Shown here in pieces: positions 26,629 to 28,609 of a DNA stretch of 32,000 bases. Source of the stretch: Candidatus Saccharimonadota bacterium. Lineage in GTDB: Archaea > Nanohalarchaeota > Nanosalinia > Nanosalinales > Nanosalinaceae. How positions within the stretch are numbered: the stretch's first letter is position 1; each line of letters opens with the position of its first letter. The translations under genes and the position numbers were made by a program. The stretch is taken from positions 600,001 through 632,000 of the forward strand of contig NZ_CP180230.1 of NCBI RefSeq assembly GCF_047555085.1, read 5' to 3'. The notes beneath the pieces are model-generated. The model ran no database searches. It worked only from the letters and a program-made list of their open reading frames with translations, and was not told the origin of the DNA.

Positions 26629-26991
26629 ATGAGAGATAGAGATCAAGGCCTCAACTCCGGTGAAAACAGGGACGAAGCTGCTTCAGAATCAAGAAGAGAG
26701 TTTCTGAAAACGTTGATGCTGGGAACTGCGGCTACAGGCCTTTACGCATCTCTGCCCTCTGTAAGTGCTTTCTCTATAAGCTCTGAGGATCCTGTAAAAT
26801 TCTTTAACTCGACTTCAAGTAGCGCCAACGTTGAGATACAGGCCTCCGGGAACGTGGACATCAAAGACAATGATATAGTTAATGCGAGGCGTGTTGAGGC
26901 CTCTGAAGTTAATTTTTCTGGTTCAAATAGTAACGGTAAAACTATAGTTTATGACAGCGAGCTTGATACACTGGTGGTAGTTGATGAGTGA
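26629..26991 (+). CDS. small Tat-signal protein (mature part about 70 aa)
   Basis: Near-consensus twin-arginine motif SRREFLK, followed by the h-region TLMLGTAATGLYASLPSVSA. Confidence 0.8.
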   Translation: MRDRDQGLNSGENRDEAASESRREFLKTLMLGTAATGLYASLPSVSAFSISSEDPVKFFNSTSSSANVEIQASGNVDIKDNDIVNARRVEASEVNFSGSNSNGKTIVYDSELDTLVVVDE

Positions 26992-28303
26992 TGGATACGA
27001 GTTAGGTACGGCGAAGGTTTTCCAGGATTTTGCAACAGCTTTCGATGCTTTGAAGACTGCGGAACAGAACGTACAGTTTTCTATTGATCCCAGTCAGGGC
27101 CTGACACGGGAACGTTATGGATGGTATTCTAATGGAAATATTTTTGATTCAAGTTATTTTTCCAGTGATGCCGGTGAAATCGGTATCTCTACGGGTACAG
27201 GCAGCACTGATACAGCAAGGATAAGATCCGGTTACGCAGGACAGTACGTTTCACAGAGTCTGGCACAGCCAGGTCATGCGGTCAGGATTGATTCCGGGAA
27301 CGTGAATATTGATGGAAGCGGCCTGGTTTCCTTGAGCCATGGTAACGTCAAGATAGGGCCTTTCATGCATGATGGCTCTCAGGTGACAGAAGGATTTTTC
27401 ATCGAGTTTGACTCCTCGGGCACAAGATTTGTCCGTGTGAGAGGAGGAACACGTGTGACAGAGGTCGATCAGGCTAACTGGAATCTGGATAATATGACCG
27501 GTCAGGGAGGCTCCGCTAATCCTTCCGGTGAACAGCTGGATCCCTCCGAAATGTATATCTACAACTATCCGTTTACTTGGTATAACTCTGGGCGGCTTTC
27601 GATCGGTAGAAGCAGGACCACCGGCATACCGAAGCCCCAGCAGATCCAGTTGTGGCACGAGTTCCAGCCAAGCGGAGAACCTAACCTGAATACTGCAAAT
27701 CTTCCTGTACAGATAGTATTTGACAACGCAGGTACAGGCCAGAGTCTTTCCGGTGCCCTGGGAGGCATGCAGTACAGTATCTACGGGGGAGATGGGCCTG
27801 TCGAGAAAAGAGTTACAGAGGCCATTGACAACGATATCTCGATAAGTGTTGCACGGAACGATCCTATCGATCCTGCGGCACAGCCAGGAACACCGATTTT
27901 TGCGGTGAGACGGCAGAGCGGCTACGAGGATCTGGAAGTTATGATCAGCGACCTGGAAGTTGTACCGTCCAGCACAGACCTGTTTTTCTACGTGTGGTAT
28001 GTCTGGGATTCGTCTGCACTTTCCGGAGCAAGCTTCAATCAGGCCTCTACAAGAAACTTCAGCTCGGAGACACGTATAGAAATCGATAAATCAGCGACGT
28101 CTTTCGATGCAACAAACGCCATCAATGAAAGAGTCTTCCGTGTAAGCGGAGCTAAAAACAACGAGAAAGTGAGTGTGTTCCCTAGAGAGGCCGAATCAAG
28201 ACTTCCTCTGGAAGCTACTGCAGTCGTAACAGCTGTAGAGGCCGATACTAACGGAAACGGGACTACAGCAGACGTCGTCATGCCTATCATCGAAGGATTC
28301 TAA
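26984..28303 (+). CDS. 439-aa G/S/T/N-rich protein, no signal peptide, unknown function
   Basis: Long ORF. ATG 26984 overlaps the upstream stop (ATGAGTGA). There is no hydrophobic N-terminus, no TM helix and no catalytic motif I recognise. Confidence 0.75.
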   Translation: MSDGYELGTAKVFQDFATAFDALKTAEQNVQFSIDPSQGLTRERYGWYSNGNIFDSSYFSSDAGEIGISTGTGSTDTARIRSGYAGQYVSQSLAQPGHAVRIDSGNVNIDGSGLVSLSHGNVKIGPFMHDGSQVTEGFFIEFDSSGTRFVRVRGGTRVTEVDQANWNLDNMTGQGGSANPSGEQLDPSEMYIYNYPFTWYNSGRLSIGRSRTTGIPKPQQIQLWHEFQPSGEPNLNTANLPVQIVFDNAGTGQSLSGALGGMQYSIYGGDGPVEKRVTEAIDNDISISVARNDPIDPAAQPGTPIFAVRRQSGYEDLEVMISDLEVVPSSTDLFFYVWYVWDSSALSGASFNQASTRNFSSETRIEIDKSATSFDATNAINERVFRVSGAKNNEKVSVFPREAESRLPLEATAVVTAVEADTNGNGTTADVVMPIIEGF

Positions 28304-28330
28304 ATTCCTCAATGGAGGAGAAAAAATTCT

Positions 28331-28609
28331 GTGAGAGATATAGTCGAAACAGAGAAAATCAGCGACGAACAACTCGATGGTGTCCACGCCAGACTTGAAC
28401 AGAACTCTGAAGACCGGACAGTTATAGAAGAGACCGGTACAGAGGCCGAAAGAATCTTCCGCTACAAGTTCGAAGAGGAAGACCTTGGAGAGATATGGTA
28501 TGGACAGATCGACATAGAGATCTACGATAAAACTTTCCAGGCTCGTGGAGACGAAGCACTTCTCAACAGGTACTTTGCGGAAAACAGGATACAGGAAATA
28601 GAGTACTGA
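28331..28609 (+). CDS. 92-aa acidic hypothetical protein
   Basis: GTG start with GGAGGAG 12 nt upstream. Same strand as, and tight spacing with, its neighbours. Confidence 0.5.
   Translation: MRDIVETEKISDEQLDGVHARLEQNSEDRTVIEETGTEAERIFRYKFEEEDLGEIWYGQIDIEIYDKTFQARGDEALLNRYFAENRIQEIEY

Follow-up and report, generated by a model that had tools for sequence, protein, structure and literature searches.

In the hitch-hiker complexes of twin-arginine translocation (Tat), one subunit carries a twin-arginine signal and its signal-less partner is encoded alongside, as in Escherichia coli hydrogenase-2 (HybO/HybC), DmsA/DmsB and PaoABC (PMC4273604). The known examples are cofactor-containing redox enzymes with the signal located on the catalytic or electron-transfer subunit. 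A gene pair with the same layout lies in a 32-kb stretch of nanohaloarchaeal DNA, called the window throughout and used as the coordinate frame for all positions. Open reading frame (ORF) A encodes a 120-residue protein with a Tat-type signal, and the overlapping ORF B encodes a 439-residue protein that lacks a signal and is homologous to virion structural proteins of tailed viruses. By analogy with the known hitch-hikers, export of a pre-assembled, folded A-B complex is proposed here. The pair differs from them in that the putative carrier is a non-enzymatic peptide of 73 residues that descends from viruses, its cargo a lectin-like homologue of virion proteins and the host a DPANN archaeon, and co-export is what we infer for it. 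A further point of likeness is a weak match of A to the small Tat-signal proteins found next to formate dehydrogenase (TIGR02811).

A second system to be considered is the haloarchaeal Tat-fimbriae (Tafi), built from TafA, TafE and a LamG-tipped TafC (PMC11821415, PMC12337348). Tafi resemble the arrangement proposed here in the Tat-dependent presentation of a concanavalin-A (ConA)-like (laminin-G) adhesin domain on halophilic archaea, and strand donation between their subunits is a plausible analogy for how the carboxyl terminus of A might bind B. In Tafi, however, a separate Tat signal is present on each subunit, the pilins being β-sandwiches of 17-19 kDa, and the cluster contains the TafD signal peptidase and the TafF anchor (PMC11821415). 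Membership of the pair in this system was rejected because B has no signal, mature A has only 73 residues and there are no taf-like genes nearby.

The reading of the locus that we favor is a tentative one, somewhat short of an even chance. A and B would form a virus-derived two-gene module in which the small Tat-signal protein A carries or anchors the lectin-like, signal-less protein B. An ancestor of one Nanohaloarchaeota clade would have taken both genes from haloarchaeal tailed viruses, and the pair would have been retained as a cellular function.

Anatomy and conservation of the A-B pair

The window is cellular chromosomal DNA from one of the Nanohaloarchaeota. Its housekeeping genes include those for lysyl-tRNA synthetase (LysRS), pyruvate kinase, GatA, GatB, GatC and S-adenosylmethionine (SAM) synthetase, and its GatA is 72-85% identical to the GatA of many Nanohaloarchaea genomes. 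The encoded proteome is very acidic and the guanine-cytosine (GC) content is 46%. ORF A (26629..26991, plus strand) consists of a Tat-type signal at residues 1-47 and a mature part of 73 residues. ORF B (26984..28303, plus strand) starts before ORF A ends: the ATG of B occupies 26984-26986 and the TGA stop of A occupies 26989-26991, giving the 8-nucleotide (nt) stop/start overlap ATGAGTGA (26984..26991, plus strand). The sequence GGTGG is located at 26973-26977, 6 nt upstream of the B ATG. The overlap implies that A and B are translationally coupled.

The same 8-nt overlap is present in the nanohaloarchaeal contigs L003, L006, L007, L050 and L051 and in the viral contig L035, and L005 has a 4-nt overlap. 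With the window included, A and B joined by the identical 8-nt overlap were found in all six nanohaloarchaeal contigs that hold B plus its upstream sequence; several short contigs end before the position of A and are uninformative for conservation of the pair. In L003, L006, L007, L050 and L051 the gene order is a CARDB gene on the minus strand, A (121 residues) and B, and these carriers have the genes in the gatA-gatC interval, as does the window. The eight A orthologues are 120-121 residues long and all nanohaloarchaeal. The B orthologues of the related nanohaloarchaeal contigs are 66-75% identical and all 439-440 residues long. The ratio of nonsynonymous to synonymous substitution rates (dN/dS) is ~0.11 for A and 0.07-0.15 for the pair, with saturated dS, which identifies purifying selection on both genes. 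An earlier note on this DNA had described in A a SRREFLK motif, an h-region ending in VSA and a mature part of about 70 residues, together with a stop of A overlapping the start of B and the lack of a signal or transmembrane segment in B. The raw sequence and the hydropathy values agree with this description on every point. Co-occurrence of the A, B and C trio in relatives was suggested there as a check, and that of A and B was found in six of six contigs with upstream sequence.

The twin-arginine motif S-R-R-E-F-L-K was read directly from the sequence at residues 21-27 of A (26689..26709, plus strand). It is followed without a gap by the h-region LMLGTAATGLYASLPSVSA and then by FSISS. The h- and c-regions together (TLMLGTAATGLYASLPSVSA; 26710..26769, plus strand) place an AxA-type cleavage motif ahead of FSISS, which reads VSA↓F in the window. 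The hydropathy of the h-region is 1.1-1.27 (maximum Kyte-Doolittle value over 12 residues, 1.27) compared with 2.69 for the Sec signal of the neighboring CARDB protein. The A h-region is far less hydrophobic than this Sec signal, which is in line with Tat signals. The motif in the form [STA]RR[DEN]F[LMI]K, the h-region and the cleavage site ASA↓FSISS are kept in 8/8 A orthologues and the 20 residues ahead of the motif vary freely. The RR, F and K positions are strictly kept although the A orthologues are otherwise only ~62% identical. This conservation next to a variable n-region makes the Tat motif of A more than a chance match by sequence comparison. When ~415 kb of nanohaloarchaeal loci were scanned with a loose Tat motif, the scan returned the A orthologues, one VIT-family false positive and nothing else; the loci all represent one syntenic region and therefore give no genome-wide estimate, and window A fell just under the hydropathy threshold of the scan. 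Mature A contains two kept N-glycosylation sequons (NST and N[FLI]S).

Viral relatives and predicted fold of ORF B

ORF B has no amino-terminal signal and no stretch of transmembrane strength (maximum Kyte-Doolittle value over 19 residues, 1.05). The earlier note recognized no family for A, B or the 92-residue ORF C that follows them, and for B this has to be revised: B belongs to the virion-structural family phrog_1645 and has a ConA-like part. Its match to the phrog_1645 'virion structural protein' profile has an expect value (E) of 3.8e-21 and spans residues 55-397. Matches by tblastn were Sulfitobacter phage phiGT1 gp4, whose gene adjoins the portal gene, and HGTV-1 gp10. HGTV-1 is a haloarchaeal myovirus whose gp10 bears the annotation virion structural protein; the gp10 gene lies between those for the portal and the prohead protease. 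A sequence search of the PDB gave no match to B. Neither B nor C matched Pfam or NCBIfam, and for B this includes the Pfam lectin and LamG families.

An AlphaFold2 model of B based on 36 homologues is all-β with a mean predicted local distance difference test score (pLDDT) of 85.8 and a predicted template-modeling score (pTM) of 0.85, and its first 11 residues are disordered. A Foldseek search of the PDB with this model, a check that the earlier note had suggested, returned 209 chains at E ≤ 1e-3 headed by ERGIC-53, Emp46/47 and the legume lectins. The lectin matches have a probability of 1.0, E ~1e-6 and target-normalized template-modeling (TM) scores of up to 0.62. The alignments cover part of B (query-normalized TM score ~0.33), the remainder being further β-structure, and sequence identity is 8-11%. 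Because of these matches, part of B is modeled as a ConA-like β-sandwich jelly-roll of the legume-lectin type. The likeness to the carbohydrate-recognition domains of legume lectins, ERGIC-53 and Emp46-47 is a fold match for part of the protein; the low identity and the missing Pfam lectin or LamG match set B apart from them. An identity as a double-jelly-roll capsid protein was rejected because the best PDB matches of B are lectins and not capsid proteins.

Superposition of the whole protein was obtained with viral models. In the BFVD database, B aligned over its full length with HGTV-1 gp10 (R4T8W4; TM score 0.78, E = 1.3e-31) and also with proteins of HHTV-2 and HHTV-1 and a 418-residue HFTV1 protein (A0A410N6U5, E = 3e-22) at TM scores of 0.71-0.74. 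By its size, A0A410N6U5 is equated with HFTV1 gp20, the product of the gene after the major capsid gene. The likeness of B to the phrog_1645 proteins of HGTV-1 (gp10), HFTV1 (gp20), HHTV-1, HHTV-2 and phiGT1 (gp4) thus consists of profile, tblastn and full-length fold matches together with an overlapping small ORF in two viral contigs. The family is large, with 3273 cluster representatives at E ≤ 1e-3. A metagenome scan for it gave three loci, all from one virus already in the set, and IMG/VR gave 10 loci. In GTDB genomes the B profile had no match; NHA29 is the sole representative genome with the island that holds the pair, and its contig breaks inside the CARDB gene. The nanohaloarchaeal B proteins form one clade in a neighbor-joining tree and are sister to viral sequences. 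These results establish the viral ancestry of B. The window copy differs from its viral relatives in that it resides in a cellular chromosome without other viral genes, is vertically conserved in one clade and has a partner with a Tat signal.

These data also bear on whether the pair is a decaying fragment of the head module of an integrated tailed virus, without cellular function. The idea draws on the B family being virion-structural, on homologues of 35-44% identity that adjoin terminase, portal, MuF-like, protease and capsid genes elsewhere, and on the position in a variable hotspot where signal-less LamG proteins also match phage families. The context of window B is cellular, however, and outside any head or packaging module. 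Searches of the island by ORF list, Pfam and phrog profiles found no terminase, portal, capsid or integrase genes, and it contains no viral hallmark genes. At least five diverged lineages retain the position and the intact frames, dN/dS does not exceed 0.15 with dS saturated, and A has a conserved signal that is absent from the viral partners. The GC content of the island is 44-49%, which is host-like; that of the viral homologues is 52-66%, and the contigs with B homologues of 35-44% identity range over 50-69%. A provirus remnant is largely refuted and very unlikely. The intact conserved frames, low dN/dS, host-like GC content, lack of viral hallmark genes and restriction to one clade argue instead that the pair is domesticated.

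The A-B relationship and the proposed export of the pair

The last 17 residues of A (KTIVYDSELDTLVVVDE; 26938..26988, plus strand) are a candidate B-binding element. In the viral contig L035, a 52-residue ORF overlaps the B homologue by 8 nt and ends in RTIEYDDELDTLVVVEHE, and in the viral contigs L005/L041 a 167-residue ORF overlaps the B homologue by 4 nt and ends in QTIQYDEELRSLVVIKE. The carboxyl-terminal motif TIxYDxELxxLVV is common to A and both small viral ORFs, and the viral ORFs have no signal. The B homologues with such a partner, viral and nanohaloarchaeal alike, start with MSD[GA]YEL.TA. Six other viral lineages were examined and had neither this start nor an A-like partner. The occurrence of the A tail in signal-less viral ORFs argues for a direct A-B interaction that is older than the signal. 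The carboxyl terminus of A would then bind B, perhaps at the amino-terminal segment MSDGYELGTAK, as judged from the paired motifs. A itself would be the descendant of a small viral ORF co-translated with B, its amino terminus being a twin-arginine signal in the nanohaloarchaeal lineage. A profile search with the carboxyl-terminal region of A found the 52-residue ORF of L035 again and nothing else, tblastn of A against isolated phages gave nothing meaningful, and no natural A-B fusion was present among 192 family members. In L004 (9366-9677) and L008 (9618-9998), a DUF5802 protein is encoded just upstream of the viral B homologue, at the place taken in other lineages by the A-like ORF, and may partner the B homologue in its stead.

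A Tat-like motif also occurs in two B-family proteins from metagenome contigs. P0014 and P0016 (530 and 535 residues) have a B-type core to which an amino-terminal SRREFM and an h-region are directly fused. In the tree they form a clade apart from nanohaloarchaeal B, among viral sequences, which suggests that the B family acquired a Tat-type motif on two occasions. The model of P0014 shows residues 1-70 as disordered, followed by a low-confidence β-meander and then a confident B core, and says nothing on an interface. The contig of P0016 is short with a GC content of 59%. The product of the gene beside P0016 (L033, 3144-4034, plus strand) has an amino-terminal coiled coil followed by STRRDALKGGAGILGLGLLGG at about residue 53, which puts the RR unusually far from the amino terminus. 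By eye, the RR motif is followed by a Gly/Ala-rich hydrophobic stretch and then a β-helix-looking region. This neighbor was judged by reading its sequence to be a putative Tat-signal β-helix protein, and the gene upstream appears sulfatase-like on the same basis.

The favored reading of A as carrier or anchor of B can be set out as a series of steps. The 8-nt stop/start overlap would fix the ratio at which A and B are produced, and the two proteins would assemble in the cytoplasm. The folded A-B complex would then leave through the Tat translocase on the signal of A, by hitch-hiking. Once outside, B would either be freed after cleavage at VSA↓F or stay tethered if the weakly hydrophobic signal remains as an anchor. 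It would there act as a carbohydrate-binding surface protein beside the CARDB protein, and possibly the LamG proteins, and contact with the haloarchaeal host is conceivable. The co-export step taken alone is possible and is put forward with reserve. The carrier/cargo architecture proposed in the earlier note stands in so far as A and B are a conserved, co-translated pair under purifying selection with a kept Tat motif. Hitch-hiking is a plausible but unproven interpretation of these sequence features.

Several observations weigh against this export route. Window A scores 16.8 bits against Pfam TAT_signal (PF10518; cut-off 22.7) and 13.9 bits against TIGR01409 (cut-off 16.7); one orthologue, P0045, exceeds the latter cut-off (21.0 vs 16.7 bits) and the remaining A orthologues score 15-20 bits. 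P0014 and P0016 have no match to the Tat-signal profiles, their SRREFM motif having been seen by inspection alone. The export machinery is in doubt as well. TatC was found in some Nanosalinaceae only and Tat genes are patchy across the Nanohaloarchaeota (PMC9765267), TatC is the sole component reported in the nanohaloarchaeal literature, with no TatA (PMC9765267, PMC10266531), and a study of cultivated strains considered the system likely inactive there (PMC10266531). B has just three sequons, which take up 12% of its Asn residues, as in cytoplasmic proteins and in the viral homologues, compared with 25 sequons in the adjacent Sec-exported CARDB protein. HFTV1 gp20 was detected in virions by mass spectrometry and is otherwise unmentioned in the cryo-electron microscopy paper (PMC12494034).

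The profile scores and the machinery are the grounds for supposing that the amino terminus of A is a Sec signal or an uncleaved anchor in a cell without a functional translocase, A then being a small membrane or surface protein that B joins by another route or never. Weak matches of the A signal region to the Rieske and PetC Tat-anchor profiles point the same way. Such an anchor is hard to reconcile with RR, F and K being strictly kept in proteins of ~62% overall identity and with an h-region much less hydrophobic than the local Sec signal, and at least one carrier of the pair has tatC. This carrier is NHA29, which is listed with tatC, and M3_22 is listed without (Table S4, PMC9765267). The NHA29 contig, L011, matches L003 along 9210 nt at 100% identity, and NHA29 so carries the pair; the gatC-gatA gap of M3_22 has no island. 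A Sec signal or uncleaved anchor is accordingly regarded as improbable.

The sequon count of B raises a different alternative, in which A alone is exported or inserted into the membrane and co-translated B stays in the cytoplasm, either as an inherited operon or with the tail of A acting as a transient, chaperone-like aid to the folding of B, as in a viral ancestor with both proteins in the cytoplasm. The low sequon density fits a cytoplasmic B, the viral partners are signal-less so that the A-B relationship works in the cytoplasm, and the LamG neighbors likewise have no signals. A folded Tat cargo may, however, be a poor substrate for glycosylation, and the low count is thus a reason for caution and no refutation of export. 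If A binds B and has kept a Tat signal, the folded complex is just what Tat transports. The independent Tat-like fusion in P0014/P0016 suggests that cellular copies of B are exported, and there is no evident cytoplasmic role for a lectin-like virion protein. A cytoplasmic B is rather unlikely on this balance.

Nanohaloarchaeota live attached to haloarchaea. To our knowledge, little is known about the molecules behind this attachment. A lectin-like protein that is conserved, of viral origin and probably brought to the surface would be a concrete and testable candidate for host contact. It would also plainly exemplify how a symbiont domesticates a structural gene of its hosts' viruses. In its most far-reaching form, the proposal would be that an ectosymbiont shows a lectin-like protein of its host's viruses on its own surface by means of a Tat-signal escort peptide and binds the glycosylated envelope of the host with it; this is speculative and we think it doubtful. 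If true, a viral attachment-type module would have been re-used for symbiont-host adhesion via a minimal dedicated Tat escort peptide. Co-export of the pair would take Tat hitch-hiking beyond redox enzymes, to a cargo that is no enzyme and has a dedicated carrier of 73 residues, in a phylum whose Tat activity is itself doubted. The pair also offers a handle on a very large uncharacterized virion protein family (>3000 cluster representatives) and its small co-translated partner.

The gatA-gatC island and its other genes

The pair belongs to a variable island of 6.9 kb (window 23894-30816) located between gatA and gatC. Besides A and B, the island contains p149, p163, the CARDB gene, C and two LamG genes. 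About 20 other Nanohaloarchaea genomes have gatC and gatA side by side or with a metallophosphoesterase gene (163 residues) between them, which marks the island as an insertion specific to one lineage at a variable site. Scans for bacterial-type promoters and terminators gave counts not above those of shuffled sequence.

The CARDB-domain surface protein (25134..26489, minus strand; 451 residues) has a Sec signal and a Pfam CARDB match. Its gene is transcribed divergently from the pair and kept next to it. Its 25 N-glycosylation sequons account for 76% of its Asn residues, a density that points to a heavily glycosylated surface protein.

ORF C (28331..28609, plus strand; 92 residues, GTG start) follows B. 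The earlier note had described it as an acidic ORF behind a Shine-Dalgarno-like GGAGGAG, which agrees with its net charge of -15 and the GGAGGAG at 28314-28320, and had proposed it as a chaperone or additional subunit. ORF C follows B in L006, L007 and L050 and is absent in L003; L012 and L030, which are without A and B, have a homologue of it between gatC and gatA. It was rejected as a specific partner on account of this distribution.

The two Laminin_G_3 (ConA-like) proteins of 474 and 228 residues (28667..30778, plus strand) have no signals and match Pfam at E = 5e-49 and 6e-21. In L006 their genes lie beyond gatC, and the islands of L003 and L050 do not contain them. The LamG proteins, like C, are thus not specific partners of the pair, and the conserved core consists of the CARDB gene, A and B. 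A third LamG-type gene (31220-32000, plus strand) runs past the end of the window, and its product starts with MAIRWDSESDWENSQDSSGT. Its DNA is 73-78% identical to that of the first LamG gene, LamG1 (28679-28938 vs 31232-31491 and 29342-29450 vs 31892-32000), which indicates that the LamG genes flank gatC as recent paralogues. In the intergenic stretch 24920-25133, a 20-nt segment (25022-25041) is 95% complementary to LamG1 (28906-28925), and 89 nt of the stretch (24961-25049) match intergenic DNA of L006 at 84% identity. The stretch may be what is left of a LamG gene, or a scar of recombination.

The remaining genes of the island have no family. The gene p163 (24427-24918, minus strand; 163 residues) was seen in the window alone, and p149 (23977-24426, plus strand; 149 residues) is kept beside gatA in L003, L006 and L011. 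L006 carries a partial second gatC (57 residues) and an ORF of 1068 residues, both between B/C and the full gatC (11652-11825, 12200-15406 and 15407-15685), and the carboxyl-terminal 290 residues of the long ORF resemble the CARDB protein. These copies indicate duplication and rearrangement in the hotspot. Between gatB and gatA, the window encodes a polyprenyl-synthetase-family protein of 504 residues (20991-22505, minus strand) that has an acidic amino-terminal extension of ~170 residues and is kept in relatives at 472-475 residues.

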